Positions 14,932 to 40,207 of a stretch of DNA of 64,000 nucleotides are shown piece after piece. Origin of the DNA: Promethearchaeota archaeon (GTDB taxonomy: Archaea; Asgardarchaeota; Thorarchaeia; Thorarchaeales; Thorarchaeaceae); assembly GCA_014728035.1 (NCBI GenBank), contig WJMJ01000071.1:1-64000 (forward strand), given 5' to 3'. The notes beneath the pieces are model-generated. The model saw only the letters and a list, made by a program, of their open reading frames with translations. It was not told the DNA's origin and did not search any database. Position numbers and translations under genes: made by a program. Positions within the stretch are counted from its first letter, which is position 1. The number at the start of each line of letters is the position of its first letter.

Positions 14932-17079
14932 GTGAAGACTCTTGGGATGGAGTTACATCAGATGGACCGCCAGGAACTTATTGACGTATTATTCAATCCG
15001 CGTTCAATCGCAGTAATCGGTGCCTCAGAAACCAAAGGTAAACTTGGAAATGATGTTCTGAGAAACCTAATTGAGAGTGGCTTTCAAGGAAGAATCTATC
15101 CTATCAATCCAAAAGGTGGAGAGATTCTTGGCCAGAAAGTCTATAGAAAAGTAGGAGATATCGCTGGCGACGTTGACGTCGCAGTAATTGTCATTCCTGC
15201 ACGATTTGTGCTTCCAGTTGTCGAAGAATGTGGTGAAAAGGGAGTAAAAGCCTTAGTAATCATAACCGCGGGATTCAAAGAAATTGGTCATGAAGGTCAG
15301 GAAGCAGAGAAAAAATTAGTTGAACTTGCCAAAAAGTACGATATGATTATCCAGGGTCCAAATTGTCTTGGAATAATCAACACAAGCTCACCTTACAATG
15401 CATCTTTTTCTGCAGGAACCCCCTCTAAAGGCAGTATTGCATTCGCATCTCAATCTGGAGCCCTGATGACAGGAATTCTTGATTGGAGTCTTATGGAGAA
15501 GATTGGATTCTCAAAATTTGTTAGTCTTGGGAATAAGGCTGATCTTGATGAAGCTGATTTCATTGAAGCGTTTGGTAGAGACCCTGCTTCTACTTTTATT
15601 CTGTTGTATATTGAATCTGTAGTGAATGGACGCAAGTTTATGGAGGCATGTAAGAAAGTAGTGCCCAAAAAACCAATTTTCATTGTGAAATCCGGGGTAA
15701 GTGAAGCTGGTGCGCGAGCAGCATCCTCTCATACTGGATCCTTAGCAGGAAGTGATACTGCTTATGATGTTGCCTTCAAACAGAGTGGTGTGAGTAGAGC
15801 GGAGAATATGGCAAACCTGTTCGATGTAGCAAATGTATTTGATGATATGCATCTACCTGCAGGAAATCGTGTCGCCATTGTAACAAATGCTGGTGGACCC
15901 GGGATACTAACAACTGATGCGTGTGAAGCAAATGGATTGGAGATTGCAAAGCTCACAAATCAATCAATCGAGGTCTTAAAGGAGGGACTACCCCCTGCAG
16001 CATCAGTGTATAATCCAATCGATGCATTGGGTACTGCTCAACCAGAGGAGTATGAGTTATGTATCGAGACCGCTCTTGCTGATGAAAATGTGGATTCCGT
16101 TATCGTTCTGGTTACTCCGCAAGCAATGACTGATGAAACGGGTACAGCTCAGGTCTTAGTCGAGGCTCACAAAAAGTTCCCTGGTAAACCACTTGTTGCA
16201 GTTTTTATGGGTGGAAATTCAATGGTCTATCCACGAATCGTATTAAACGAAGGTGGTATTCCAGTATTTGATTTTCCTGAACGTGCTGTGTATGCACTTG
16301 CAGAATTATACAAATATACAGTCCGAAGAGATAGCCTGAAAGATGAAACCATACCGCGGTTTAGGGTTAGAAAATCTGAGGTAGCTGATATCATTCGAAA
16401 GGTCCGAGAAGATAACCGAACAGTACTTCTTGGAAGTGAAGCACATGCAATTGCTGAAGCTTATGGCATTCAAGTAGCAAAGATTCGTTTAGCTACAAGT
16501 TCTGAAGAAGCAGTGAGTCTTGCTGAAGAATTAGGATATCCAGTAGTTATGAAAATTGCCAGTCCTGATATTGTGCATAAAAGTGATATCGGTGGTATCA
16601 AAATTGGATTGAATTCTCCAGAAGAGGTAGAACAGGCATTTATTGAAATTCTTGAGAATGCTCAAAATCAGAGACCAAAAGCTATTGTATATGGTGTTGA
16701 TGTTCAGGAAATGGCAGATAAAGGCAAGGAAGTAATAATTGGTTGCTCAAGAGATATCCAGTTTGGGCCAATGATCATGTTTGGTGCTGGAGGCATTTTC
16801 GTTAACTATCTCAAAGACATCTCATTCAGATTAGCTCCAATGACACGTAGTGATGTACAAGAACTGATTGACGAAACCAAAATGGGAACTCTTCTAAAAG
16901 GGGTGCGAGGTGAACCTCCAAGTGATGTCAAGGCTATTGAAGATACAATTCTTAGAATCAGTCAACTCGTCACAGATTTTGAGGAGATTGTCGAGCTTGA
17001 TATCAATCCGTGTTTTGCTTATGTAAAAGGTAAGGGTATTTCTGCGGTCGATGTAAAAATTACGATTGGAGGAGAGTAG
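14932..17079 (+). CDS. acdAB: acetate/acyl-CoA ligase (ADP-forming), fused alpha-beta
   Basis: PRSIAVIGAS, GPNCLG, SQSGA, AASSHTGSLAG phospho-His motif, ATP-grasp HKSDIGGI, ELDINP. Confidence 0.93.
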   Translation: MKTLGMELHQMDRQELIDVLFNPRSIAVIGASETKGKLGNDVLRNLIESGFQGRIYPINPKGGEILGQKVYRKVGDIAGDVDVAVIVIPARFVLPVVEECGEKGVKALVIITAGFKEIGHEGQEAEKKLVELAKKYDMIIQGPNCLGIINTSSPYNASFSAGTPSKGSIAFASQSGALMTGILDWSLMEKIGFSKFVSLGNKADLDEADFIEAFGRDPASTFILLYIESVVNGRKFMEACKKVVPKKPIFIVKSGVSEAGARAASSHTGSLAGSDTAYDVAFKQSGVSRAENMANLFDVANVFDDMHLPAGNRVAIVTNAGGPGILTTDACEANGLEIAKLTNQSIEVLKEGLPPAASVYNPIDALGTAQPEEYELCIETALADENVDSVIVLVTPQAMTDETGTAQVLVEAHKKFPGKPLVAVFMGGNSMVYPRIVLNEGGIPVFDFPERAVYALAELYKYTVRRDSLKDETIPRFRVRKSEVADIIRKVREDNRTVLLGSEAHAIAEAYGIQVAKIRLATSSEEAVSLAEELGYPVVMKIASPDIVHKSDIGGIKIGLNSPEEVEQAFIEILENAQNQRPKAIVYGVDVQEMADKGKEVIIGCSRDIQFGPMIMFGAGGIFVNYLKDISFRLAPMTRSDVQELIDETKMGTLLKGVRGEPPSDVKAIEDTILRISQLVTDFEEIVELDINPCFAYVKGKGISAVDVKITIGGE

Positions 17080-17080
17080 A

Positions 17081-18148
17081 ATGACTAGGAATATTGTCAT
17101 CACAGGAGATACAATAATCGGAAAAACTCTACTTGCTCTCGGAATATCTGCGAAACTACGTGCCGAAGGAAAGTCTGTTGGATACTTCAAACCTGTAGGA
17201 TCAAAAAGCTATGATCTCAGTACAACAGATGTTGATATTGATGAAGATGCCGCTGTAATGAAGGAAGTTCTTGGACTAGAGTCAGATGTATCTTGCATCT
17301 GCCCACTAATTCGGCATAAGTCTAGCTATGATGAGTTTTTGCGGATTGGTAACGAAAAACTCCATGAAAAAATAATGAAATGCTTTTCTGAGATTTCCGC
17401 GGGAAATGAAATTATGCTCATCGAAGGCACTAAATCACCTTGGCACTTGCTTCATGTGAACCTTTCCACGGCTCAGATTGCGACATCTCTTGAAGCAAAT
17501 GTGATATGTCTTGTTAATTTTCCTGACATAACAGCAATCGATGATATATTACTCCAGCGTGACTTCTTCAAGATGCATGGTGTGGATGATATCACAATCG
17601 TCTTGAATCTTGTGCCGCCTATGCTCCGAAGTACTATTCAGGAACATATTCGTTCTTTTATTGAACAACATGGAATGCATTATGGTGGCACTATCTATCA
17701 AAATAGAGAATTATTCAGCCCCTCTGTGAGAGAGATTCTTCGAGCTCTTGATGGCGAGATTATTACCGGAGAAGATAAGATTGATGCAGTGATTGTCGAC
17801 CAATTCATGGTTGGAAGCATGGCTCCTGAAAATGCTCTGAAGTGGTTCCGTCGAGCAAAACACAAAGCTGTTATCACTAGTGGTGATCGAAGTGACATCT
17901 GTCTAGCAGCAATGGAAACCGATACAAATCTTCTAATTCTCACCGGTGGAATGGGGCCTGATATTCGAACTATTTCTCGTGCTAAAGAACTTGGCATTCC
18001 TATCATCATGACTGCTCATGATACATATTCTACAGGACAAATAGTAGATAATCTTGTAACAACGATAACACCTGAGAATAAGGAAAAAATTGCGTTAGTT
18101 GAGAAGATAATTGGTGAAGCTTTAGTACTCTCACATCTTGGCATATAA
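17081..18148 (+). CDS. phosphotransacetylase N-terminal-like protein (AAA_26 + DRTGG)
   Basis: GKTLLALG, GYFKPVG, VITSGDRSDI, LILTGG; no PTA catalytic domain. Confidence 0.85.
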   Translation: MTRNIVITGDTIIGKTLLALGISAKLRAEGKSVGYFKPVGSKSYDLSTTDVDIDEDAAVMKEVLGLESDVSCICPLIRHKSSYDEFLRIGNEKLHEKIMKCFSEISAGNEIMLIEGTKSPWHLLHVNLSTAQIATSLEANVICLVNFPDITAIDDILLQRDFFKMHGVDDITIVLNLVPPMLRSTIQEHIRSFIEQHGMHYGGTIYQNRELFSPSVREILRALDGEIITGEDKIDAVIVDQFMVGSMAPENALKWFRRAKHKAVITSGDRSDICLAAMETDTNLLILTGGMGPDIRTISRAKELGIPIIMTAHDTYSTGQIVDNLVTTITPENKEKIALVEKIIGEALVLSHLGI

Positions 18149-27876: not shown

Positions 27877-27974
27877 ATTTGGTTCCTTCTATTCATACGT
27901 CAATGATTTCCGTACTATTCATATCTTAGAAGCCCCCAACAAAAAGTATCCCATAATGACATGTGGTGTTATCA

Positions 27975-29429
27975 ATGAGTCAGAGATTATTTGCAGTTTT
28001 CGATGTTGGAACAACTGGTGCAAGGTCTGTTATTGTAGATGAAGAAGGTAGGGAGGTCAGCAAGGCATATGAAGAATACCCTCAGAAACCCCGTGATATT
28101 AAGATACACGAGGAGCTAGCAGAAACCTATTGGCGTACTGCCTGCAATACGATGCAGAGAGCAATTGCAAAACATGGTTCAGCTGATGGGATAGTAGGGG
28201 TGGTTCTTGCAACAACAAGAGACTGTGTTACACCTATTGACAAGGATGGTAATCCCCTAGCACCTACCGTAACTTGGGTGGACAATCGGTCCACTGATAG
28301 TGCAAAAGAAATGGCGGAAGATATTGGACCTCGCAAGAGCGTTAACAAAATTCTTTGGTTTAAAGAAAATAGACCACAGTTATTTGACAAGACCTTCAAA
28401 TTTCTTCATTTGGATGCATATTTGAACTATCGTTTGTGTGGTGAAATGAAAAGTGAACCAGCAAATGCCAGATATGGTCCCATTGACCACGATACCCTTG
28501 AATGGTCCACTGCACTATGCGAGCAGATAGGAATACCTATTGACAAGCTTGCTGAGATTACTGAACCTGGAACTGTAATCGGAGGTATCACTGCTGAAGC
28601 ATCTAAGAAGACTGCTTTGAGAAAGGGTACTATGGTTATTATGGGTAGTGGAGATCAACAATGTTCTGCACTAGGAACTGGGACAATACAAAAAGGTATA
28701 CTAAAGGCCACGACAGGTACTGGAACATTTGTAATCACACATACTGATGAACACATAGAAGATCCATATGTGATGTTTTCAAATCCCTCAGCAATACCCG
28801 GAAAGTGGATATTAGAAGGAGTAACGCCAGGAACAGGACTTGCATATCGTTGGTATCGTGATAATTATTGTGAGCCAGAAAAAATGATGGCAGCTAAGAG
28901 CGATGAGGGAGTATATGATCTAATGGAACAATCAGCAAGTGCTATTCCTGCAGGAAGTGATGGGCTTGTTATTTTTCCATTTATGGCATATAACAAAGGG
29001 ATATTCTACAATGTTGGTTTCAATCACACTCGTGCTCATATTGCTCGTGGAATCATGGAAGCTAATGGCTATAGTATCAATATGTATGTACAAATGATGG
29101 AGGGTATTCTGGATATCGAATTTGACGAGATGCGAATTGACGGCGGCGGTTCTAATTCACCTCTATGGCGTCAGATTATGGCAGATTGCACAAATAAGAC
29201 AGTTCTTCTTCCTCGCTCTCGTGACTCTACCGTCATTGGAGCGGCAATCTTAGGAACTGTTGGAAGTGGACTCTATGGTTCCTATGAAGAAGCCGTTACA
29301 AATATGCTCAAGATTGATGAACGTAGAGAACCAATTCCTGAAAATGTAGAGATTTATGAGAAGCAGTTTGGAATATTCAATAAGATTATGCTAGCTGAGA
29401 TGGCGGATATTATAGAATTGACCTCATAA
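27975..29429 (+). CDS. FGGY-family kinase (glycerol/xylulose kinase-like)
   Basis: FDVGTTG, GSGDQQCSALG, TGTGTF, IDGGGSNSPLWRQIMAD. Confidence 0.9.
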   Translation: MSQRLFAVFDVGTTGARSVIVDEEGREVSKAYEEYPQKPRDIKIHEELAETYWRTACNTMQRAIAKHGSADGIVGVVLATTRDCVTPIDKDGNPLAPTVTWVDNRSTDSAKEMAEDIGPRKSVNKILWFKENRPQLFDKTFKFLHLDAYLNYRLCGEMKSEPANARYGPIDHDTLEWSTALCEQIGIPIDKLAEITEPGTVIGGITAEASKKTALRKGTMVIMGSGDQQCSALGTGTIQKGILKATTGTGTFVITHTDEHIEDPYVMFSNPSAIPGKWILEGVTPGTGLAYRWYRDNYCEPEKMMAAKSDEGVYDLMEQSASAIPAGSDGLVIFPFMAYNKGIFYNVGFNHTRAHIARGIMEANGYSINMYVQMMEGILDIEFDEMRIDGGGSNSPLWRQIMADCTNKTVLLPRSRDSTVIGAAILGTVGSGLYGSYEEAVTNMLKIDERREPIPENVEIYEKQFGIFNKIMLAEMADIIELTS

Positions 29430-29438
29430 AAGATAAGA

Positions 29439-29480
29439 ATGACTCAGAAAGGACCTCATCGATTGAGGCCCGTGAGTCAT
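29439..29480. terminator. inverted repeat between convergent genes
   Basis: ATGACTCA...CCTCA-TCGAT-TGAGG...TGAGTCAT. Confidence 0.5.
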
Positions 29481-29488
29481 AATAATCA

Positions 29489-29758
29489 CTATTTATTATC
29501 CGAGTTCTGTTCCCAGATTCTTCCAAGAATTATTAGAGCAAGCACTGCTTCAGAACCAGTTACTCTTTGAGCTACATATTCAATACTTTCTGAGATAGTA
29601 TCCTCATAGTCCCACGCTGAACGTGCGAGCTGTACTAAATCATCGAACCGATGCTCGGGAATACCAATAGCTTCAGTTAGTTTTGATGCATCATGTGATA
29701 CAATATTCAGAGTGCCTAAATTATATGTTGGCATGTTTTTCACCAATATTTTATCCAT
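29489..29758 (-). CDS. hypothetical small helical protein
   Basis: 89-aa ORF (start may be ATG 29734), fills the gap between kinase and glpA. Confidence 0.65.
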   Translation of the reverse strand: MDKILVKNMPTYNLGTLNIVSHDASKLTEAIGIPEHRFDDLVQLARSAWDYEDTISESIEYVAQRVTGSEAVLALIILGRIWEQNSDNK

Positions 29759-29955
29759 TTGGTATTTTACTTATCTATGTACCTTGCGTGGATACTAAAT
29801 AGAGTGTATACCTAATTGAATCGCAGATTATATACCAATAAAGGCTTTGCTCATATAATAATCGAAAGCCTTGTATTATTGTATCTGTTACAAAATATTA
29901 TCCCCAGAATCAGTTAATCTAGCTTATATCTCCAACAACAGGAGTCTTACTAAAA

Positions 29956-31611
29956 ATGGTTGATTATGATGTTGTAGTCATAGGTGGTGGCAGTACTGGT
30001 ACTGCTGTAGCTCGCGACTGTGCAATGAGAGGCTTTCGCACATTACTTCTTGAGCGTGATGATATTGCTTCTGCAACGGTTGGAACCTGTGCAGGAATGA
30101 TATCCTCTGGCCTGAAATACATGGATGAACCTGAGATTGTCGATATGTGTTCTGATGAGGTAGTTCACTTTCTTCGGATTGCTCGACATATCATTATGAA
30201 AAACCCTATACTAACACCTATGCTTGAGATGAGTGATCTCTCAAGTGGAGGGAATTTTGCAGAAGAGTATTCCAAACGGGCTGAATCACGAGATGTGCCT
30301 CCTGTGCTGTTTCTCACACCCGAAGACTCTCGTGAGATTGAACCCTCTCTAAATCCGGAGATTATTGCCTCTCTCTATTTCGAAGAATATTTCATAGATC
30401 CTTTTCGTTTATGTATCTTACAAGCAATGGATGCAAAGAACCATGGGGCTGATGTTAGAACGTATTGTGAATTGATAGATATTGATGTCAAAGATGGTAA
30501 GATTGCTGGAGTTGCATATTTCAATCGGATTACGCATGAAGAAGAGCGAGTTTCAACTAGCATTGTCATCAATGCAGCTGGTCCATGGGCATCAAAGGTT
30601 GCCAAATTTGCTGAGGCCAAGATTGATTTGCGTCTGAACAAGGGTGCACACGTAATCTTAGATCGAAGAGTTGTCAATGTAGGCGTAATTGCAAAAGCTG
30701 TTGATGGCCGGATGATCTATCTTTTTCCCCACGAAAACACTACACTTCTTGGTACAACTGCTATTGATACATGGGAAAACCCAGACACCCTTACAGCGAG
30801 TCACGATGAGATTGAATACCTATTACAGAGTATGGAGTGGGTAATTCCCTCTATTCGTGATGCACGAATAATTCGAACGATGGAAGGAGTTCGACCTCTT
30901 GTTGCAGACTGGAAGATTCCCGAGGGAAAAGTCACCCGTGGTTATGAGGTGATTGATCATTCTTCCCAGAATATTGAAGGTCTTATCAGCTTCACCGGCG
31001 GAAAACTGGTAATGTGCAGACATATGGCTGAAGCAGCCACTAATTTAGCTGCGGGAATGTTGAACGTAGAAACTGAATGCAGGACTCATCTGGAACCACT
31101 ACCCGGCAACGAAGATGATGTGGATGTTCTCGCTCTTGCTAAAGAATTCGATATAGCACAACATGCTGTAGAACGTCTGAGGGCTAGACGCGGAACTGAA
31201 ACAAGAATGATATTAGAATTAACAAGAGACCATCCAGAATGGAAAACAACAATCTGTACCTGTGAGCCAGTGATAGAGGCCGAACTTCGATACAGTATAC
31301 GAAATGAGTTTCCCCAAACTCTCAATGATTTACGTCGACGAGTTAGACTTGGCACTGGCCCCTGCCAAGCAACTTTTTGCACGTATAAGGCTGCTGCTAT
31401 CTTGGCGGACGAACGGGAACTAAGTGGGCATGATTTCCAACTGGATATACTCGATTTTCTATCCGAGCGATGGAAAGGCAAACGTCCCTCCTTCAGACGG
31501 GAACAGGTCATTCAGGAAGAGGTCGCTCAGGGAATGTACGCCTGTGTTGGAAATCTTGACTTGACTTTTGGGTCGGTCTACACTCGTAAACCATGGGAGG
31601 ATTGGTCATAA
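29956..31611 (+). CDS. glpA: anaerobic glycerol-3-phosphate dehydrogenase subunit A
   Basis: VIGGGSTG...RDCAMRG, VINAAGPW, GVRPL, GGKL, C-terminal BFD-like CTCE...RLGTGPCQATFC. Confidence 0.92.
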   Translation: MVDYDVVVIGGGSTGTAVARDCAMRGFRTLLLERDDIASATVGTCAGMISSGLKYMDEPEIVDMCSDEVVHFLRIARHIIMKNPILTPMLEMSDLSSGGNFAEEYSKRAESRDVPPVLFLTPEDSREIEPSLNPEIIASLYFEEYFIDPFRLCILQAMDAKNHGADVRTYCELIDIDVKDGKIAGVAYFNRITHEEERVSTSIVINAAGPWASKVAKFAEAKIDLRLNKGAHVILDRRVVNVGVIAKAVDGRMIYLFPHENTTLLGTTAIDTWENPDTLTASHDEIEYLLQSMEWVIPSIRDARIIRTMEGVRPLVADWKIPEGKVTRGYEVIDHSSQNIEGLISFTGGKLVMCRHMAEAATNLAAGMLNVETECRTHLEPLPGNEDDVDVLALAKEFDIAQHAVERLRARRGTETRMILELTRDHPEWKTTICTCEPVIEAELRYSIRNEFPQTLNDLRRRVRLGTGPCQATFCTYKAAAILADERELSGHDFQLDILDFLSERWKGKRPSFRREQVIQEEVAQGMYACVGNLDLTFGSVYTRKPWEDWS

Positions 31612-31612
31612 A

Positions 31613-32980
31613 ATGGAGCATGAATTTGATTTAGCTATTATTGGTGGTGGTATTGCTGGTCTCGCTGCTGGGACTATCGCTTCTGAATCTGGTCTAAAGA
31701 CAATCTTGGTCAGAAAAGGTCAAGGTTCGACATCCTACTCATCAGGGGCCATTGATATTCTAGGAAACCTTGTTGAGAGTCTATTCCCTTTGAGTCCTCT
31801 TGATACCTTATCTACTACTGGAGTGATTCGATCTACACATCCGTATGTCATTTTGGGTATTTCTGAGGATAATCGTGAAGTTGAGACCGAATTAATTGTT
31901 CAAAGGGTCAGAGACTCCACGAAATGGCTACAGAAGGGGCTGGATGGTTCTTGTGCTGAGTTTACTGGGGCTTTGGACCGAACTATGGAGGCAATAACCG
32001 TTCTAGGCACAACAAAACCCACATGCTTTGTTCAAAAGACGATGGATATGGGGAATCTTAGGGAGCATCACGACGAGAGTATTCTCCTCTTCGTTGACTT
32101 ATTAGGTCATCCTGATTTCAACGGTAGGCTTGCTGCACGGACTTTCGCAGAATTCCAGAGGTATGAGGATAAACCAGTCAAGAAAGTATCAAGCTGTTCA
32201 ATAACAATTGCTCCTTTTGGCAAACCTTACAATATTTCATCTGTGGAGATTGCCCGCCATCTTGATCATTCAGGACTACCTAGTGAGGCTCTCTCTGAGC
32301 TGAGAACGAATATTGAAAATACAGGTGCAACACATGTGGCTCTACCTCCTGTTATGGGAATTGAGTATGCTACTACTGTTTTACAGGAAATAGCGGACCT
32401 TGGCGTGCATCCATTTGAAGTCCTTTCTTTTCCACCATCAGTACCTGGTATGAGACTTCAACAATCACTGGACGATATGTATCTTGAATCTGGAGGGCAG
32501 ATGCATATTGGTACTGAAGTTGTGGGATTTGATTCTGCAGATGATAGAGTAAGTCGGATTATTGCGAAGAGTCCGCATAGACAGCTGGAAATTTCTGCTA
32601 CCGCAACAATACTTGCATCTGGGAAATTCATAGGTGGGGGAATTAGAGGAGCCGAGAGTGGCTTCAGAGAATCTATCTTTAATCTGGATACTGTAGATTT
32701 GAACTACAATCCAACAGATGATTTGAGACCTCAGAAGTTAACAGATCGCATTAATGTGAGTTACGAAGGTCACGCTGCTTTCAGTGTGGGTGTTCCCGTT
32801 GACCGATACTTCAGGCCTATAAATTATGATTCTCAAGTGGTATATGAGAATCTTTTCGCTGCTGGCTCTATTCTAGCTGGATACAATTATCCTGTTGAAA
32901 AGAGTGGTTTGGGTGTAGGTCTCACTACTGGTTATACTGCGGGATTGAACGCTATGAGATATATCAAGGAGGAACTCTAA
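31613..32980 (+). CDS. glpB: anaerobic glycerol-3-phosphate dehydrogenase subunit B
   Basis: IIGGGIAG, SSGAID, PPSVPGMRL, LASGKFIGGG, NLFAAGSILAG, GLGVGLTTG. Confidence 0.9.
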   Translation: MEHEFDLAIIGGGIAGLAAGTIASESGLKTILVRKGQGSTSYSSGAIDILGNLVESLFPLSPLDTLSTTGVIRSTHPYVILGISEDNREVETELIVQRVRDSTKWLQKGLDGSCAEFTGALDRTMEAITVLGTTKPTCFVQKTMDMGNLREHHDESILLFVDLLGHPDFNGRLAARTFAEFQRYEDKPVKKVSSCSITIAPFGKPYNISSVEIARHLDHSGLPSEALSELRTNIENTGATHVALPPVMGIEYATTVLQEIADLGVHPFEVLSFPPSVPGMRLQQSLDDMYLESGGQMHIGTEVVGFDSADDRVSRIIAKSPHRQLEISATATILASGKFIGGGIRGAESGFRESIFNLDTVDLNYNPTDDLRPQKLTDRINVSYEGHAAFSVGVPVDRYFRPINYDSQVVYENLFAAGSILAGYNYPVEKSGLGVGLTTGYTAGLNAMRYIKEEL

Positions 32981-34210
32981 ATGAATGAAGAAGAAGCCTA
33001 TGAATTTGTTAGGGGGACCTTGAAAGAAGAAAGAATTATCCCTTACAAAGAGGACGAATTGAAAATAATCAAATCTATTGAACAATGCATCAATTGTGGG
33101 ATTTGTATAAATCATTGTCCAGTTGTGGCCGGGGTAGGGGTTGACCAGTTTAGCGGCCCTCGTAGCATCGCAGTTGAGCTGAGCCGTTCCCCTCCTGAAT
33201 TCTGGACCACCGGCGACAAGGTATATCTCTGTACTGGCTGCGGCACCTGTAGAGAGGTGTGCCCAAAATCTGTCAACATTCCTGAGATCGTCAATATGAT
33301 TCGAGCAAGAATATTCGAACACCGTCCAGACCTTGTTCCAAAAGAATTGCACAAAGTACTAGAAACTATCCATGAACATAAGAAGGCATTTGCGCCATGG
33401 GATGACCCTGAAGATAAGATTGACAGTCGTGATATGAGACTGGATCGATTGGGTCTACCTCTAGTTGGTATTGAGCACAAAGAAAGTGTTGATGTTTTAT
33501 TCTACCCTGGTTGCCAAGCAGAAGAAATGGCTCAGGAAGTTAAGGAAGCCGCAAAAGTACTTCTAAAACGATTTGATGTGAACTTTGCAGTACTTGATGA
33601 ATTTAGCTGCTGTGGACTACCCGCTCGCTTGATTGGTGATGATAAGACCGCAAGAGAGCTGAATAAATCTCTGAAGGATAAGATAAACTCTCTCGGAGTA
33701 AAAATGTTGGTTACAACTTGTGCAGGTTGTACTTCCAATATTAGTGATATAGCAGAGCGTGACAACTGGGATATTCCCATCTATCATCTGATTGAATACC
33801 TTGCTGAACACATCGGTATCGACAAACTTCAAGCAGAAATGGCACCAGACAAATCGAAAACAAAAATCACTGTACATGAACCCTGTCATCTTATCAGACA
33901 CACCTCCCGACAAATATTGGATTATGCCATAGAAATTCTACAGACTATTCCGAATGTTGAGGTTATTTCCTCCTCTGCTCGAGATTCTTGTTGTGGTGGC
34001 GGTGGAATGGTTGCACATCATGCACCAGGTGTTGCAAAATCGGTCGTTAGGATTAATCTTGCAGCCATAGATGCTACATCTGCATCACGAGTTGTAACCC
34101 CCTGCCCGTTATGTACTGCAACGTTGGAAGATAATCTCTATCGAAGTGGCAGTTCTGTCGATGTTGATGATCTGACCGTATTTATCGCAACCCATCTTTC
34201 TAAGGAGTGA
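32981..34210 (+). CDS. glpC: GlpC/HdrD-like Fe-S protein (2x4Fe-4S + CCG domains)
   Basis: CINCGICINHCP, CTGCGTCREVCP, two CCG domains; follows glpAB. Confidence 0.8.
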   Translation: MNEEEAYEFVRGTLKEERIIPYKEDELKIIKSIEQCINCGICINHCPVVAGVGVDQFSGPRSIAVELSRSPPEFWTTGDKVYLCTGCGTCREVCPKSVNIPEIVNMIRARIFEHRPDLVPKELHKVLETIHEHKKAFAPWDDPEDKIDSRDMRLDRLGLPLVGIEHKESVDVLFYPGCQAEEMAQEVKEAAKVLLKRFDVNFAVLDEFSCCGLPARLIGDDKTARELNKSLKDKINSLGVKMLVTTCAGCTSNISDIAERDNWDIPIYHLIEYLAEHIGIDKLQAEMAPDKSKTKITVHEPCHLIRHTSRQILDYAIEILQTIPNVEVISSSARDSCCGGGGMVAHHAPGVAKSVVRINLAAIDATSASRVVTPCPLCTATLEDNLYRSGSSVDVDDLTVFIATHLSKE

Positions 34211-34216
34211 AACGCT

Positions 34217-35644
34217 ATGATTGATACTGATACACTTGAAGAGTTAACAGATAGATTACAATCTCTACTTGGACCTGATTATGTCACTGTGCAACAGACC
34301 GATAAAGTTCTCAATGCACATGATGCTTGGCCTCTTAGTGAGGCAAAAATCAGAGCGGGAGAGATGTTACCTCTTGCTGATATCATTGTATTTCCTTCAA
34401 CTACCAGAGAGGTTTCTGAAATTCTAAAAATTGCCAACCAATTCAAAGTTCCCGTGATTCCTGTAGGGGGTGGTGCTGGAACATGTGGTGGCACTCTTGC
34501 TATTTATGGTGGAATCCAACTAGACATGAAACGATTTGATAAAATTCTAGACCTTGATGAGACCTCTATGCTGGTCCATGTGGAGGCCGGGGTAGTAGGA
34601 GTAGACTTGGAGGAATATCTGAATCGTCATGGGTATACATCAGGTCATACCCCCACCTCTGTTAGATCGTCAAATGTTGGTGGTTTTATCGCAACACGAT
34701 CTGGCGGATCTATGTCATCACTATATGGAAAAATCGAAGACCTTACCTTGGGGCTGGAGTTTGTTTTACCTAATGGTGAAGTGATTTCTTGTAAATCTAT
34801 TCCTCGCCATTCTGTTGGTCCAGATTTGAAACAATTATTCATCGGATCAGAGGGAACATTGGGTGTTATTACTGAAGCTACTTTGAAGATATTTCCACTA
34901 CCAGAAGAAAGACGATTTCGAAGTGTTTCTGTTCCAGATGTTTCAACTGGGTTAACTGTTATTCGTAGGATATTTCGTGCAGGAATTACTCCATCAATAA
35001 TACGACTCTACGATCCCGAGGACACTGCATTCAGCGTAAGCACTCATTTCAGTGTTGATGAGGGTGATTGCATGTTAATGTTAGCTTTTGATGGAACCCC
35101 TGCTCAGAATGACCTTGATGAGGAATCTGTCATGCAAATCAGTTTAGCTGATGGTGCTAAAGATTATGGAGCGGAACCTGCCAAAAGATGGTGGGATCAC
35201 CGTTATGATATGTATTATCCTAGTCCATTCACTACCTCAGGATATGCAATTGGTGACACAATAGATGTTGTTGCGACATATGATAAATTGGAACAGGTCT
35301 ATCACGCAATGAAATCAGCTATGGAAGCACATGAAGCAGTGGTATTATCTCATTTCTCGCATATGTATCCAACAGGAGGGAGCATCTATATGATATTCTT
35401 TACAGCTCAACCTGATGCTGATACTGCTTGGGCCACTTACAGGAAAATCTGGGATGATGGTGTAGCTGCCTGTCTCAGAGAAGGTGGAACCATGTCGCAT
35501 CAACATGGAGTAGGACTCTCAAGAAGCACTTACACGGAGAACGAATTGGGTTCTAGCTTTTCAGTTTTGAAGCGTATCAAACAAATTCTTGATCCTAATG
35601 AGATTATGAATCCAGGAAAACTTGGTCTGGGGGTTCGTAAATAA
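34217..35644 (+). CDS. alkyl-dihydroxyacetonephosphate synthase (AGPS/ADAS)-like FAD-linked oxidase
   Basis: PVGGG, HTPTS..SNVGGFIATRSGG..YGKIEDL, PRHSVGPDLKQLFIGSEGTLGVITEA, PSIIRLYD, SHQHGVG, MNPGKL. Confidence 0.82.
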   Translation: MIDTDTLEELTDRLQSLLGPDYVTVQQTDKVLNAHDAWPLSEAKIRAGEMLPLADIIVFPSTTREVSEILKIANQFKVPVIPVGGGAGTCGGTLAIYGGIQLDMKRFDKILDLDETSMLVHVEAGVVGVDLEEYLNRHGYTSGHTPTSVRSSNVGGFIATRSGGSMSSLYGKIEDLTLGLEFVLPNGEVISCKSIPRHSVGPDLKQLFIGSEGTLGVITEATLKIFPLPEERRFRSVSVPDVSTGLTVIRRIFRAGITPSIIRLYDPEDTAFSVSTHFSVDEGDCMLMLAFDGTPAQNDLDEESVMQISLADGAKDYGAEPAKRWWDHRYDMYYPSPFTTSGYAIGDTIDVVATYDKLEQVYHAMKSAMEAHEAVVLSHFSHMYPTGGSIYMIFFTAQPDADTAWATYRKIWDDGVAACLREGGTMSHQHGVGLSRSTYTENELGSSFSVLKRIKQILDPNEIMNPGKLGLGVRK

Positions 35645-36750
35645 TGAGTGATGAAATTCTCTCTCAAGTGCGAATGTGTGCTGCATGCCCCAAAATGTGT
35701 AGACATGTGTGTCCTACATTTTTCGCATGGCGGTCTGATTCTCCTACTCCCCATGGACGTGCTTTATTAATTCATTTTGAAGGAAAGGGTATTCGCGATC
35801 TTGACGAACGCGCAATTGATGTTCTATACCAATGTCTTGAATGTAGTCACTGTTTAACTTGGTGTAAGCCTGAAATTGACATAGCATCAATTGTTGAAAC
35901 CAAAAGAAGAGAGATTGTTAGAAAATCCTGCGAACCTAAAGAAATCAGGGTCCTCTCAGAATGGGTGTTGAAAAATCACAATCCATTTAACGAACCTCAT
36001 AAAAATAGATTATCAAAACTGAATATTGAGGTTACTGATAACCCCGATATTCTCTATTTTGTTGGGTGTACATCATCCTATCGAGAAAGTGAAATAGCCA
36101 ATTCTACTATTAGTGTTTTGAATAATCTTGGATACGATGTAGCAGTTTTGGAAGATGAATGGTGCTGTGGTTCGCCGTTATTTAGAACTGGTTCAAACAC
36201 GAATGCTCTAACACAAGCTGAAAATAATGTAGAGCATTTGAACGAACATAAAGCAAAACAAATTATCGTTTCCTGTCCTGGATGCTTTAGGGCTTTAACT
36301 AAGGATTATCCTGAGCATGGTTTCGAGTTGAATAAACCCATCTTTCATATCAGTCAATTTCTTGATATGCATAGGGATCAGCTTCCTTCGTTCGATATTT
36401 CTTATCCTATTACCTACCATGATCCTTGTCATCTTGGTCGTCATTGTGGTGTATATGAAGAACCTCGAAAGGTGATAGAACATATTTCTGGAAAAGCACT
36501 TCATGAAATGGAAAGAACTCGTGATAATGCAATGTGTTGTGGAAATGGTGCTGGTTTAAGATTGATGTATCCTGAAAAAGCCAAAAAGATTGGCCATGAA
36601 AGAGTTAAACAGGCAAAGCAGACTGATTCTGACCTGCTTCTTAGTTCTTGTCCGTTTTGTAAAAATATGTTGAAACAACAAGCTGGAGAATCCATTGAGG
36701 TTCTTGATCTAGTTGAATTCGTACACAAACATCAGGAAGACGATAACTGA
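35644..36750 (+). CDS. Fe-S/CCG-domain oxidoreductase (GlcF/HdrD-like)
   Basis: CAACPKMCRHVCP, CLECSHC, CCGSP, YHDPCHLGR, CCGNG. Confidence 0.85.
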   Translation: MSDEILSQVRMCAACPKMCRHVCPTFFAWRSDSPTPHGRALLIHFEGKGIRDLDERAIDVLYQCLECSHCLTWCKPEIDIASIVETKRREIVRKSCEPKEIRVLSEWVLKNHNPFNEPHKNRLSKLNIEVTDNPDILYFVGCTSSYRESEIANSTISVLNNLGYDVAVLEDEWCCGSPLFRTGSNTNALTQAENNVEHLNEHKAKQIIVSCPGCFRALTKDYPEHGFELNKPIFHISQFLDMHRDQLPSFDISYPITYHDPCHLGRHCGVYEEPRKVIEHISGKALHEMERTRDNAMCCGNGAGLRLMYPEKAKKIGHERVKQAKQTDSDLLLSSCPFCKNMLKQQAGESIEVLDLVEFVHKHQEDDN

Positions 36751-36766
36751 AAGCAATTAAGGCCTA

Positions 36767-37906
36767 ATGAGGAAGTATGGTGGGATTGGAATGAATACGG
36801 AAGAGATACTCAGACTCAAAGTTAGATTGCTTACAGAGGGAGCATCAATTTCAGATTCGGAATTTCAAGGTAGGAAAGGAGGTGCTGGTCCAGTTGGAGG
36901 AAGATACTTTCTACTGCCAAATGGCCGTCCTGTTGGAATCCCAATCCGAAGTGGTGAGATGGCTGAGAAATTCAAATCTGCTCAACTAGAACCAACAGAA
37001 GACCCTATGATTTGGTTATATGATAGGTCGATAGAACTAGAACTCGTTCCAAAGCCTTCTTTTTACGATTTGAAAACAGATGACGGTATTCCCTACAACA
37101 AGATTGCTTTACTTCATGGCCGTGAAACTCTTGCTACTACATTGTATCAGAATTGTCGCTACTGGTTAACTGGTCAACAATGCAAATTCTGTACCATTCC
37201 TCATTCATATCAATCTAAAGACGCTCTTCTTGAAAAAACTCCTGAACAGTTCGTAGAAGTGTTACAGGCTGCTCTAAATGAAGGAGTAGTAAAAGACATT
37301 CTCATGACCACTGGAACCCCCGATGCTGATGATGTCGGAATTGAAAGAATATTATCTGTTGTCAGGGCTATTCGCGAAATCTCCGATATTCCGGTAGGAG
37401 TGCAATTTGAACCCCCTATAGATGCTGAAAAAATTCATGAAGTCTATAAGGTGGGAGTTAATGCGGTTGGGATTCATATTGAGAGTATAGATCCAGATAT
37501 TCGAGCAAAATACTGTCCCGGAAAAACCGAATATGGCTCTTATGAGTTATATATGAAGAGCTGGAAACTTGCTCTCGATCTTTTTGGAAAAGGAAATGTA
37601 AGCACATTCATTTTGTATGGTCTTGGAGAAGACCTATCTCTCACTTTATCGAAGCTGAATGAGATAGCTTCTACTGGAGTGCTTCCAGTAATCACTCCTA
37701 TTCGTCCGGCTCCAAATAGTCAACTTGGGAATTTCATTCCTTCATATTTGAAAAAACCAAAATTGTATTTCGAATTTGTAAAAGATGTTGGTAGAATTCT
37801 TTTCCGTGAAAAAATAAATCCGAAAGAAACTACTGCTGGGTGTCACCGGTGCGGCGGATGCACCCCAATTCAAGAAGCTTATGATTTTGCCCAGTCTGTT
37901 TTATGA
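36767..37906 (+). CDS. radical SAM protein, MSMEG_0568-like
   Basis: GRKGGAGP, IALLHG..TLATT, C-x8-CKFC, C-terminal AGCHRCGGC. Confidence 0.8.
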   Translation: MRKYGGIGMNTEEILRLKVRLLTEGASISDSEFQGRKGGAGPVGGRYFLLPNGRPVGIPIRSGEMAEKFKSAQLEPTEDPMIWLYDRSIELELVPKPSFYDLKTDDGIPYNKIALLHGRETLATTLYQNCRYWLTGQQCKFCTIPHSYQSKDALLEKTPEQFVEVLQAALNEGVVKDILMTTGTPDADDVGIERILSVVRAIREISDIPVGVQFEPPIDAEKIHEVYKVGVNAVGIHIESIDPDIRAKYCPGKTEYGSYELYMKSWKLALDLFGKGNVSTFILYGLGEDLSLTLSKLNEIASTGVLPVITPIRPAPNSQLGNFIPSYLKKPKLYFEFVKDVGRILFREKINPKETTAGCHRCGGCTPIQEAYDFAQSVL

Positions 37907-37950
37907 GCTACACCTATCCTTATGTAGCGGAAACTCCACAATAGGTATGA

Positions 37951-38445
37951 GTGACAATGAGCGAGATGCCTGCTGAAGAAATTCGTATCATTGAATTCAC
38001 AAAAGAAGATGCTGAAGAAATTTCAGACTTGTTCAAACAGGTATGGCCGTTGTGTGTCCAATATCCTGAAGAATGGCGAAAACACAGAATGTACACTCCA
38101 GAAGAAATCATCCACGAGATGGAAGAAGGATATCATTACTTTGGAGCACGTCTGGAGGGGCAAATTGTTGGAGTCTATAAAGCAATAATTACCGATAAAG
38201 GTCTCTATGGAGAACATCAAACCGTTTCTCCTCAATGTGGAAGGTCTGGCCTTGCATCTGCCATGTATATCCAATTTGCAGAATACGGAAAAGCCCATGG
38301 ATGTAAAAGGAACTATTGTAATGTATTGGTTGGCCAAGAAGCAGTTGAACGACTGATGAAAAAATTTGGATTTCGTCCTTGGGGTGAACCTTATGAGCAA
38401 GCAGAAGGTATGCTTGTTCAATGTTATGAACGTCTATTAGATTAA
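37951..38445 (+). CDS. GNAT family N-acetyltransferase
   Basis: GQIVG, TVSPQCGRSGLAS, LMKKFGF. Confidence 0.8.
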   Translation: MTMSEMPAEEIRIIEFTKEDAEEISDLFKQVWPLCVQYPEEWRKHRMYTPEEIIHEMEEGYHYFGARLEGQIVGVYKAIITDKGLYGEHQTVSPQCGRSGLASAMYIQFAEYGKAHGCKRNYCNVLVGQEAVERLMKKFGFRPWGEPYEQAEGMLVQCYERLLD

Positions 38446-38539
38446 GAGTGTATAACTACTCTTAAAATCAGTTCTTTCCCGAAAGACTATATACCATTTT
38501 GAAATCAATCATTTTCACATTCCACCTGAGGTTTTTACA

Positions 38540-40207
38540 ATGGATGTACATCCTATACTTGTTGATGGAGAAGAAATAGACACTGGGAAGTACACTTTCT
38601 TTCCTGACATGGATAAGGTAATACTAGATCCAGGTTTGGCAATTGCGTTACAGATGCGAGCAGCATCAAAAAGCCAACGCTTTGTTTTTTCTCGAATGCC
38701 TGGGCTCATTCCTTCAAAAACTGCGGAGATGCGATATCTTCGAGATTATCGAAAAGCACATGGTGTTCCAAAGTATAGCAAAGATGAACTTGATGACATT
38801 CTCTACGCTAAAATTGCTTTATCCCGTGATTCTGATATCAATAATGCGATTGCAGCAGGCGTCCGGGACCATCATGCATTATTCAATCCTTTCAGACGTC
38901 CCAGTATGGGCGTAACTCTTGATGATCGTGTTGACGCATTATACAATGCTGGATTGGCTGTAAAACAAGAATTTGAAACCGTACGGGAGATTTCAGTAAA
39001 AGAAGGTGTTCCGATAAAGACATTCGAATGGACTTGGAAAATGTTTACTGATTACCTTGAGAGAGAAACATTCGAACTGTGGGGAGAAGCACTAGATATT
39101 CGTGAAGACCCTGGACGTGATGGTGGTAAAAATTATCGATTTAGAGAACCTTATGGTGTATCCTGTCTATTTACACCCTATAACTCTCCATTGGCACTCG
39201 GAATTCTTAGCATTACCTCTTCAATACTCGCTGGAAACTCGACTATTTTGAAACCTCCAAGCAAAGTTCCACTAAGTACTATTCTGCTTGGCCGGATTTT
39301 CATGAAGAAGTTTTTAGAGCTAGGTCTCCCTCCTGGAATACTACAATTGCTCACAGGAGGTGGGAAACGGATGATGAATCGTTTTATGTCTGATTCCAAT
39401 GTGGGTGCAGTAGTTTGGTATGGAGATAGTGATACTGGACTTATGTTGTGGTCCGAAGCAGTTAGTAAAAGGATTCAGATGGCTCCAGAGCTAGCTGGAA
39501 GTGATGCAAGTTTGGTGTGGGGATCTGATGTTGACCTTGAGTTTGCAGCTAAAATGATTGTGAAAGGCAGATACCTTGGCAGTGGTCAGGCATGTATGGC
39601 TGTCAAGCGTCTTCTTGTACAAGAATCGCTTCATGATGACTTACTGGAGCTTATCATCGAAGAAGCTGAAAAATTGCAAGTTGGACGTCCATCCGATCCA
39701 AAAGTTGGGTTACCACCAGTTGGCTTGACAGCATTGTACATACTTGTAGATCAAATAGAAGACGCTCTTGCAAAAGGTGCGAGAATTGAAACTGGTGGGT
39801 ATCGTTGTAATTATCTTGCAGAAAAGGACCCTGCAGGTTTATTCTATAAACCAACTGTTCTAACAAATGTGACACCAGATATGAGATTATTAAGAGAGGA
39901 AGTATTCGCTCCTGCTTTACCTGTTATGAAAGTAACCAGTGTTGATGAGGCCATTTCAATTGCTAACTCATCCCGTTTTGGTCTGAGATCTTCTATTTTC
40001 ACTGATGATATCGAAGTTCGTAATAAATGGGCAAAAGAAATACAGGCAGCAGGGGTAAATGTTGGGCAAGATCATCTCTATTTTGATCCCTATATGCCGC
40101 ATCTTGGGGGCTATAAGGACTCGGGGATAATTGGAGGCAAATACTTCCCAGAGATGTTAACTCGGATGAAATATGTCCATGTAGGTCCAGAAGTAGACTT
40201 TGTATGA
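38540..40207 (+). CDS. aldehyde dehydrogenase family protein
   Basis: EPYGV..TPYNSP, ILKPPS, PELAG, GQACMA catalytic Cys, EEVFAP, GGYKDSG. Confidence 0.9.
   Translation: MDVHPILVDGEEIDTGKYTFFPDMDKVILDPGLAIALQMRAASKSQRFVFSRMPGLIPSKTAEMRYLRDYRKAHGVPKYSKDELDDILYAKIALSRDSDINNAIAAGVRDHHALFNPFRRPSMGVTLDDRVDALYNAGLAVKQEFETVREISVKEGVPIKTFEWTWKMFTDYLERETFELWGEALDIREDPGRDGGKNYRFREPYGVSCLFTPYNSPLALGILSITSSILAGNSTILKPPSKVPLSTILLGRIFMKKFLELGLPPGILQLLTGGGKRMMNRFMSDSNVGAVVWYGDSDTGLMLWSEAVSKRIQMAPELAGSDASLVWGSDVDLEFAAKMIVKGRYLGSGQACMAVKRLLVQESLHDDLLELIIEEAEKLQVGRPSDPKVGLPPVGLTALYILVDQIEDALAKGARIETGGYRCNYLAEKDPAGLFYKPTVLTNVTPDMRLLREEVFAPALPVMKVTSVDEAISIANSSRFGLRSSIFTDDIEVRNKWAKEIQAAGVNVGQDHLYFDPYMPHLGGYKDSGIIGGKYFPEMLTRMKYVHVGPEVDFV

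Follow-up and report, generated by a model that had tools for sequence, protein, structure and literature searches.

An AGPS-like flavoprotein and its iron-sulphur partner behind glpABC in a Thorarchaeota genome: probably a YgcU-like dehydrogenase that acts on a small polyol or ketose, or on a phosphate of either

Introduction

Does an archaeon of the Asgard group possess a pathway for ether lipids of the glycerol-3-phosphate (G3P) type? The question is raised by a cluster of genes at positions 27963-36750 of a 64,000-nucleotide stretch of DNA (hereafter the window), which comprises positions 1 to 64,000 of the forward strand of contig WJMJ01000071.1 from a Promethearchaeota archaeon of the Thorarchaeaceae (GenBank assembly GCA_014728035.1). 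Here, genes resembling glpABC, which encodes the anaerobic G3P dehydrogenase, are followed by a gene for a flavoprotein, P0001, that resembles alkyl-dihydroxyacetone phosphate synthase (AGPS, or ADPS; dihydroxyacetone phosphate is hereafter DHAP), and by a gene for an iron-sulphur (Fe-S) protein with CCG domains. A preliminary description of the sequence interpreted the cluster as a glycerol-ether-lipid pathway with a bearing on the lipid divide, and offered a GlcD/GlcF-like dehydrogenase for a small polyol as the alternative.

We examined the cluster through its domain content, the active site and predicted structure of P0001, the pairing of P0001 with its Fe-S neighbour, the phylogeny of the wider family, and the genomic context of relatives in Asgard archaea and Bacteria. 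Our analyses indicate that positions 34217-36750 probably encode an uncharacterised YgcU-like FAD/Fe-S dehydrogenase acting on a small polyol, a ketose or the phosphate of one of these.

Results

The flavoprotein gene stands in one operon with glpABC

Six genes are tightly packed on the + strand:

27963..29429, + strand: FGGY-family kinase (Pfam FGGY_N/FGGY_C)
29956..31611, + strand: GlpA-like protein, FAD and BFD-type 2Fe-2S (DAO, DAO_C and Fer2_BFD)
31568..32980, + strand: GlpB (TIGR03378, 204 bits)
32981..34210, + strand: GlpC-like Fe-S protein (two CCG domains and Fer4_8; two 4Fe-4S motifs)
34217..35644, + strand: AGPS-like (YgcU-like) VAO-family flavoprotein P0001 (FAD_binding_4 and FAD-oxidase_C)
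35644..36750, + strand: second CCG Fe-S protein, HdrD/GlcF/GlpC-like (two CCG domains and Fer4_8)

The junctions from glpA to the second CCG gene are, in order, a 44-nt overlap, abutting ends, a 6-nt gap and a 1-nt overlap, the last being that of the CCG start with the flavoprotein stop; this spacing fits a single operon. The kinase gene, 526 bp upstream of glpA, is its own transcription unit. Coordinates of open reading frames (ORFs), domains and spacing all agree with the coupling of glpA-glpB-glpC to an AGPS-like FAD protein and a second CCG protein that had been described, and with an FGGY kinase upstream. The same gene order was found again in other Thorarchaeota and in four more Asgard families, so the arrangement is not due to chance. 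For positions 29900-38500, no public sequencing runs were listed.

P0001 has the active-site pattern of AGPS without its gating domain

The sequence motifs noted at the outset are all present in the P0001 translation: YGKIEDL at residues 170-176, GPDL..GSEGTLGVITEA at 201-221, PSIIRLYD at 259-266 and SHQHGVG at 427-433. When P0001 was compared with solved proteins (phmmer, PDB), AGPS scored highest (209 and 199 bits for 2uuu and 4bby), ahead of LctD (162 bits) and of LDHD. An AF2 model (predicted local distance difference test, pLDDT, 88) gave the same result in Foldseek, with AGPS at the top (TM 0.89, 29% identity) and mouse LDHD next (TM 0.83). R263 and Y391, which are invariant among Asgard orthologues, align with R352/Y508 of the Dictyostelium enzyme and R419/Y578 of the guinea-pig enzyme, while H428 and H430 correspond to the first and third His of the AGPS HHH loop. 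This loop reads H428-Q429-H430 in P0001 and likewise in Asgard family f12, and HHH in other Asgard orthologues and most of the wider protein family. Mutagenesis has established catalytic roles for the AGPS Arg and Tyr residues and for a further Arg, R447 of Dictyostelium (PMC3509576). R447 aligns with S336 of P0001, although a low-pLDDT loop makes the alignment less sure at this point; the position is occupied by S, D, Q, L, N or a gap in Asgard orthologues, and in a site table of 108 sequences the Arg is retained only in a GlpD-linked bacterial clade and in YgcU of E. coli.

AGPS also possesses an extra N-terminal domain, with a gate-keeping helix that controls a C16 channel (PMC3509576). This gating domain is absent from P0001 in pairwise alignments with the Dictyostelium and guinea-pig chains, which begin at chain residue ~125 and ~178 respectively, and P0001 is shorter overall (475 aa, compared to 584-658 aa). 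The His/His/Glu metal site of lactate and glycolate dehydrogenases (H-x-GDGN-x-H, GEHG) is absent too, P0001 reading SHMYPTGGSIY and SHQHG, and the best NCBIfam match, TIGR00387 GlcD, reaches 217 bits, under its cut-off of 568. Judged by sequence, P0001 has an AGPS-type active site (Arg, Tyr, His-x-His) and not that metal site. The AGPS-like character claimed for it was well founded to the extent that, within the VAO family, sequence, fold and active site ally it with AGPS and not with GlcD or Dld. No FAR and no GNPAT or other acyltransferase genes were seen among the window ORFs scanned.

A dedicated Fe-S partner points to electron transfer

The flavoprotein and CCG genes are adjacent in all 20 loci of our Asgard context sample, which spans 13 families, and the Cys motifs of the CCG protein are conserved. 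A model of the flavoprotein-CCG complex scored 0.94 compared to 0.00 for the best control. Among solved complexes 58 of 80 attained that mark, as did 2 of 110 mismatched pairs (own alignments were used, and these counts are only rough). Model runs agree in at least 99% of contacts, with a pLDDT of 93 for the partner, and the modelled interface sets the ferredoxin-like N-terminus of the CCG protein (residues 7-76) against the FAD domain and loop 330-340, a predicted geometry that would be expected for electron transfer from FAD to cluster. The model supports binding between the two proteins, although, if a complex of a similar kind has already been solved, its high score might mirror that resemblance. 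The idea that the second CCG protein is a mere spare GlpC was rejected, because it accompanies the flavoprotein at loci without GlpABC.

Elsewhere in the family the outlet takes other forms. Among relatives, P0141 combines FAD, Fer4 and CCG parts in a single chain, and one clostridial locus carries an ETF gene, as does the E. coli ygc cluster described below. That two unrelated electron outlets, the CCG protein and nearby ETF genes, surround one flavoprotein family argues for net oxidation.

AGPS motifs mark a large prokaryotic family that includes YgcU

A full-library search with P0001 returned 2,239 representatives at E up to 1e-30, a count that takes in other VAO-family relatives too. The table of 108 sequences falls cleanly into two classes: a GlcD type with the pattern E, HG--D..H, GEHG, and an AGPS type with R, HSHY..G..Y, [ST]HHH, in which E. 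coli YgcU is included. Since the latter pattern is shared by a large prokaryotic family, YgcU among it, the motifs are not diagnostic of alkyl-DHAP synthase; they are the signature of that family, itself uncharacterised, and not of the synthase activity.

Phylogeny of the VAO family had been named in the preliminary description as a check on the AGPS assignment. We used a quick IQ-TREE search, the backbone of which is unresolved, and a FastTree tree, neither of which holds eukaryotic or M. xanthus AGPS. The most AGPS-like marker was L116, a sequence that matches 2uuu with 328 bits over one full-length stretch; as its gene is followed by a DAGK fusion and not by FAR or GNPAT, L116 is only the most AGPS-like sequence and not an established AGPS. 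P0203, P0133, L112 and L113 were rejected as markers of true AGPS, being no closer to the solved enzyme (190-234 bits) than P0001 itself. The division between AGPS-type and GlcD-type sequences has 100% support in the quick maximum-likelihood tree, and P0001 does not group with lactate or glycolate dehydrogenases. Actinobacterial, Bacteroidota and myxobacterial sequences that retain the R447 equivalent form a strongly supported clade (1.0), into which L115 and L116, the sequences most like solved AGPS, fall in the FastTree tree. P0001 sits in a separate, CCG-coupled clade (support 0.976), inside which the Thorarchaeota group weakly (0.76, FastTree) with a bacterial set found mostly in sugar-type clusters.

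In the Arg-retaining clade, flavoproteins from Myxococcota (L116:6376-10981) and from actinobacterial loci like L028-L049 have all three ADPS catalytic residues plus HHH, and their neighbours are a GlpD-like gene, TetR and a DAGK/YegS lipid kinase. Acyl- or alkyl-DHAP chemistry like that of AGPS is most plausible in this GlpD- and DAGK-linked bacterial clade, which is a stronger candidate for it than the Asgard protein.

YgcU (b4463) shares 30% identity with P0001 over the full length (213 bits); it stands on a long branch, and orthology between the two is uncertain. P0001 fits the profile of the YgcU-like proteins: about 470-490 aa, the residues R / HSHY..G..Y / [ST]HHH[GA], a sugar or lipid kinase as neighbour, and an electron outlet or GlpD-type gene nearby. 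The ygc cluster comprises YgcU, the FGGY kinase YgcE, the ETF YgcQR, the ETF-QO-like YgcNO, a GlpP-like antiterminator, an SDR and two transporters. The literature that we searched yielded no functional study for ygcU, Rv2251, AGPS together with glpD, or FAD-dependent catabolism of sn-glycerol-1-phosphate (G1P), and no assigned reaction for the YgcU/AGPS-like family, which we regard as uncharacterised.

The kinase is of sugar type and GlpABC is only partly canonical

All NCBIfam matches of the FGGY kinase are under their cut-offs, with LsrK (238 bits) and XylB (217 bits) ahead of GlpK (TIGR01311, 148 bits against a cut-off of 590), and the best PDB matches are LsrK (179 bits) and then Thermococcus GlpK (131 bits). 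In alignment with the latter, R/D, DQQ and GTGTF are kept and an 'AYFS' stretch, which we take to carry a glycerol-binding Tyr of the Thermococcus enzyme, lies opposite a gap in the window kinase. On this comparison the kinase is of the sugar type and not a canonical glycerol kinase. The same genome encodes a second, more GlpK-like FGGY protein (C108:26878-28344, in L114:7855-9390; 392 bits to TIGR01311, compared to 145 for the window kinase), which lies away from glpABC on another contig, beside a LarA-like gene and large unannotated ORFs.

Of the three Glp proteins, GlpB passes its model cut-off (TIGR03378, 204 bits against 174). The GlpA-like protein scores 410 bits with TIGR03377, below the cut-off of 552.8, and is the only GlpA-like gene that this model found in the genome; the GlpC-like protein, for which TfrB and LdhH are the best NCBIfam models and GlpC gives 119 bits (cut-off 278), is below cut-off for all of them. 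A 'GlpABC-type glycerol-3-phosphate dehydrogenase' seems a reasonable name from these scores, the exact substrate being somewhat doubtful.

GlpABC is a frequent but dispensable neighbour in Asgard archaea

Of 201 Asgard species genomes, 116 contain an orthologue of P0001; among the 85 of high quality the number is 58. An FGGY kinase was found by tblastn near the module in 17 of the 20 sampled loci, directly beside it in about half. GlpABC is adjacent (within ~3 kb in one locus) in only five families, Thorarchaeota included, and in two further families the module lies next to a set of the Thermococcus type, comprising GlpA, a pyridine-nucleotide oxidoreductase (NOX) and DUF1667, as described in PMC11962113. 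The flavoprotein is present in 33 of 40 genomes of family f9 and 16 of 19 of family f12, where a close GlpA was detected in 2/40 and 0/19 respectively; family f16 presents the reverse, with the flavoprotein in 0/5 and a close GlpA in 5/5. A search with the GlpA model found only distant GlpA/D-like genes, located elsewhere, in three f9 genomes (169-201 bits) and nothing above 89 bits in two f12 genomes. The presence of the flavoprotein does not track that of GlpA, a pattern at odds with an obligatory chain from kinase through GlpABC to the AGPS-like enzyme, and the linear alkylglycerol route that had been proposed is unlikely, given that the module also occurs in Asgard families without a detected close GlpA. 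The core unit is the flavoprotein with its CCG protein, usually accompanied by the kinase, and GlpABC is a frequent but dispensable neighbour.

Four f9 loci (L099, L100, L106 and L110), none with GlpABC nearby, have an alpha/beta hydrolase gene (Abhydrolase_1/Hydrolase_4) after the flavoprotein-CCG-FGGY trio; at two of them the adjoining kinase belongs to a different FGGY subtype with 23-25% identity to the window kinase.

Bacterial relatives occur in both sugar-type and GlpD-type clusters

The commonest neighbours at 55 bacterial loci are GlpD/GlpA-like genes (30), DAGK/YegS-type kinases (14), FGGY kinases (12), TetR (11) and CCG proteins (9), and the arrangement with GlpD and DAGK belongs to the Arg-retaining, AGPS-proximal clade. 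Loci encoding the proteins most identical to P0001 (38-45%) contain KduI/IolB, PfkB, a class II aldolase, RpiR and an ETF gene; a Castellaniella locus (33% identity) contains LysR, an SDR, an Fe-ADH, a TRAP transporter and an FGGY kinase that passes the xylulokinase (XylB) cut-off. Both sets, that is KduI/IolB-PfkB-aldolase-RpiR and LysR/SDR/TRAP/FGGY, belong to the relatives that group with P0001 in the FastTree tree (0.76). An Afipia locus placed elsewhere in the trees has LacI, a CUT1 ABC transporter, an SDR and another FGGY kinase passing the XylB cut-off, and an Acidimicrobiia locus unites GlpD, an AGPS-like flavoprotein and an FGGY kinase for which GlpK is the best model (383 bits, below the cut-off of 590). 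Other relatives are fused to a PfkB sugar kinase or to a HAD sugar phosphatase, or form a tandem with two FAD_binding_4 stretches.

Compact bacterial operons at L012:68-8071, L015:8332-14333 and L016:8962-17844 bring together PfkB, a fucose-isomerase-like protein, KduI/IolB, an FGGY kinase, the flavoprotein, a CCG protein and a class II aldolase, to which the clostridial member adds ETF and RpiR. Their content suggests an undescribed catabolic route of hexose or cyclitol type in which this flavoprotein takes part.

Genes flanking the cluster are lineage-specific

Downstream of the second CCG gene, and followed by the RsmB gene, are:

36767..37906, + strand: radical SAM protein, MSMEG_0568-like (TIGR04043, NF045502)
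37951..38445, + strand: GNAT acetyltransferase (Acetyltransf_1)
38540..40207, + strand: aldehyde dehydrogenase, ALDH (Aldedh, 286 bits)

The ALDH gene expected downstream is indeed there, but the intervening radical SAM and GNAT genes had gone unmentioned. Its best NCBIfam match is lactaldehyde dehydrogenase, far under cut-off, and its adjacency to the cluster, seen again in L091 and not detected in L092 or beyond, is confined to this genus. The radical SAM protein scores 280 bits with TIGR04043 (below its cut-off, 303.7) and 162 bits with NF045502 (above its cut-off, 125). The radical SAM and GNAT genes trail the preceding gene by 16 and 44 nt, and among the 20 Asgard loci they adjoin the module only in those of Thorarchaeota (family f1); they are a Thorarchaeota-specific operon tail. 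A similar pairing of radical SAM with GNAT is found in the mycobacterial MSMEG_0567/0568 cluster, but no nitrilase accompanies it in the window.

The beta-oxidation and SCP2 genes said to be nearby were found upstream, where a weak SCP2 match (24.9 bits) is accompanied by 3-hydroxyacyl-CoA dehydrogenase, two enoyl-CoA hydratases (crotonases), and a thiolase with DUF35. Upstream of these genes and of a nitroreductase, positions 14932-18148 encode a 715-aa ADP-forming acyl-CoA synthetase and, overlapping it, a DRTGG/AAA_26 protein.

Discussion

The Fe-S pairing, the CCG fusion, the ETF neighbours and the complex model together indicate net redox chemistry, which, with a small soluble substrate, is what we infer for P0001. 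As the catalytic subunit of a two-subunit enzyme, the flavoprotein would oxidise a small hydroxylated compound, most likely a C3-C5 polyol, a ketose or their phosphate, which the co-inherited FGGY kinase would make or consume. From FAD, electrons would move to the two 4Fe-4S clusters of the adjoining CCG protein, thence to its CCG-domain clusters and on to an acceptor. The fusions to PfkB and HAD phosphatase and the sugar- or polyol-type clusters of relatives are consistent with a small-molecule substrate. Thorarchaeota have the module in a single operon, after a GlpABC-type G3P dehydrogenase, and the locus would thus be a polyol/glycerol-phosphate oxidation unit. The small-polyol dehydrogenase first offered as an alternative thus came closer to the evidence than the lipid pathway, except in its active site, which is not GlcD-like.

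Several observations weigh against this interpretation. The substrate class is read from gene context, and neither tree, be it the quick IQ-TREE one with its unresolved backbone or the FastTree one, includes eukaryotic AGPS. The link to GlpA or GlpD is strong, embracing 30 of 55 bacterial loci and at least seven Asgard families with two sets of G3P dehydrogenase subunits, and so indicates a chemistry of glycerol phosphate in particular rather than of 'any polyol'. Some members of the family adjoin DAGK/YegS lipid kinases. Lastly, a site of R263, Y391 and H428/H430 suits carbanion or N5-adduct chemistry on a DHAP-like ketone, which leaves room for non-standard chemistry.

If glycerol phosphate is given its full weight, P0001 might complement GlpABC by oxidising G1P to DHAP, or act on DHAP or an intermediate at that level, a proposal that we consider unlikely without dismissing it. 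It would account for the co-localisation with GlpA/GlpD across many bacterial phyla and at least seven Asgard families, including the loci of Thermococcus-type GlpA with NOX and DUF1667, and for the Acidimicrobiia locus where GlpD and the AGPS-like protein meet a kinase modelled best by GlpK; moreover, the AGPS active site accommodates a DHAP moiety (PMC3509576), and the manner in which G1P is recycled has been described as unexplored (PMC12718374). The window kinase scores higher as LsrK and XylB than as GlpK, however, the FastTree groupmates of P0001 reside in hexose- or pentitol-type clusters, and R447, a possible ligand of the DHAP moiety, is not kept. Archaea, furthermore, already own a reversible NAD-dependent G1P dehydrogenase.

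An ether-lipid enzyme, as the preliminary description proposed, is a poorer fit still, and we think it very improbable. In that scheme the kinase phosphorylates an alkylglycerol, GlpABC oxidises the product to alkyl-DHAP, and the AGPS-like protein exchanges or cleaves the ether, ALDH leading the alcohol or aldehyde into beta-oxidation, or else the route runs in reverse as synthesis. Its attraction is plain: no solved structure is closer in sequence and fold than AGPS, R263, Y391 and H428/H430 match its catalytic residues, GlpABC lies in the same operon with SCP2, beta-oxidation genes and ALDH nearby, and DAGK-type lipid kinases accompany some of the wider family. Yet P0001 has neither the N-terminal domain with its gate-keeping helix nor the second Arg (R447 being replaced by S336 at a position variable across Asgard archaea), its middle HHH His is Gln, and it falls outside the AGPS-proximal clade. 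The conserved Fe-S partner would have no role in a redox-neutral exchange, the kinase is of sugar type, the module persists in Asgard families without a detected close GlpA, and the ALDH and beta-oxidation neighbours are specific to genus or family. A recent preprint reports no evidence of a plasmalogen pathway in Archaea (10.1101/2025.10.10.681575).

Least probable of all is a D-lactate, glycolate or D-2-hydroxyacid dehydrogenase of GlcD/GlcF or Dld type, which might for instance clear D-lactate formed from DHAP via methylglyoxal, for although GlcD/GlcF has the same two-gene architecture of VAO flavoprotein and CCG Fe-S protein, GlcD is the best NCBIfam match (217 bits) and mouse LDHD a good structural one (TM 0.83), the GlcD score is far under its cut-off of 568, HSHY..G..Y and SHQHG replace the His/His/Glu metal site, and the GlcD-type sequences make up a clade of their own with 100% support.

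What the result says about the lipid divide is mainly negative: the locus is no evidence that Asgard archaea make or break down G3P-based ether lipids. Its significance lies with the YgcU/AGPS-like flavoproteins, a large prokaryotic family that carries the active-site pattern of a eukaryotic ether-lipid enzyme, has electron outlets (CCG proteins, and ETF nearby), and is coupled to sugar or lipid kinases and G3P dehydrogenases in Bacteria and Asgard archaea. Knowing what these enzymes act on would close a gap in the carbon and energy metabolism of Asgard archaea and reveal the chemistry from which AGPS evolved. Were P0001 to act on G1P or at the level of DHAP, then Asgard archaea, and bacteria with clusters of GlpD and AGPS-like genes, could respire both enantiomers of glycerol phosphate, and in the case of G1P both backbones of mixed sedimentary lipids; AGPS would then be a later offshoot of DHAP-handling dehydrogenases.

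Among known systems, AGPS (EC 2.5.1.26; PDB 2uuu, 4bby) shares with P0001 the VAO-type FAD and cap domains and the conserved Arg, Tyr and first and third His of the HHH loop. P0001 differs in being shorter, in lacking the N-terminal gating domain, in the changes of R447 to Ser and of the middle His to Gln, in standing apart from the clade that holds the bacterial sequences closest to AGPS, and in its Fe-S subunit, AGPS being redox-neutral and without an electron-transfer partner. In GlcDEF and YdiJ-type enzymes, as here, a VAO flavoprotein passes electrons to a partner, either a protein or a domain, that bears two 4Fe-4S motifs together with two CCG domains. They act on 2-hydroxyacids by means of a His/His/Glu metal site, where P0001 has residues of AGPS type. 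The anaerobic GlpABC enzyme has the same domain architecture and gene order as the window trio, GlpB of which passes its cut-off, whereas GlpA and GlpC of the window fall below curated cut-offs, the adjoining kinase is not GlpK-like and the operon runs on into a second dehydrogenase. YgcU, finally, is of the same size as P0001, with the HSHY..G..Y / HHHG pattern, an FGGY neighbour (ygcE) and a dedicated electron outlet, but that outlet is ETF with an ETF-QO-like protein (ygcQR, ygcNO) and not a CCG protein, the second Arg is retained, and its neighbours, unlike those in the window, include two transporters (MFS), an SDR and a GlpP-like antiterminator.

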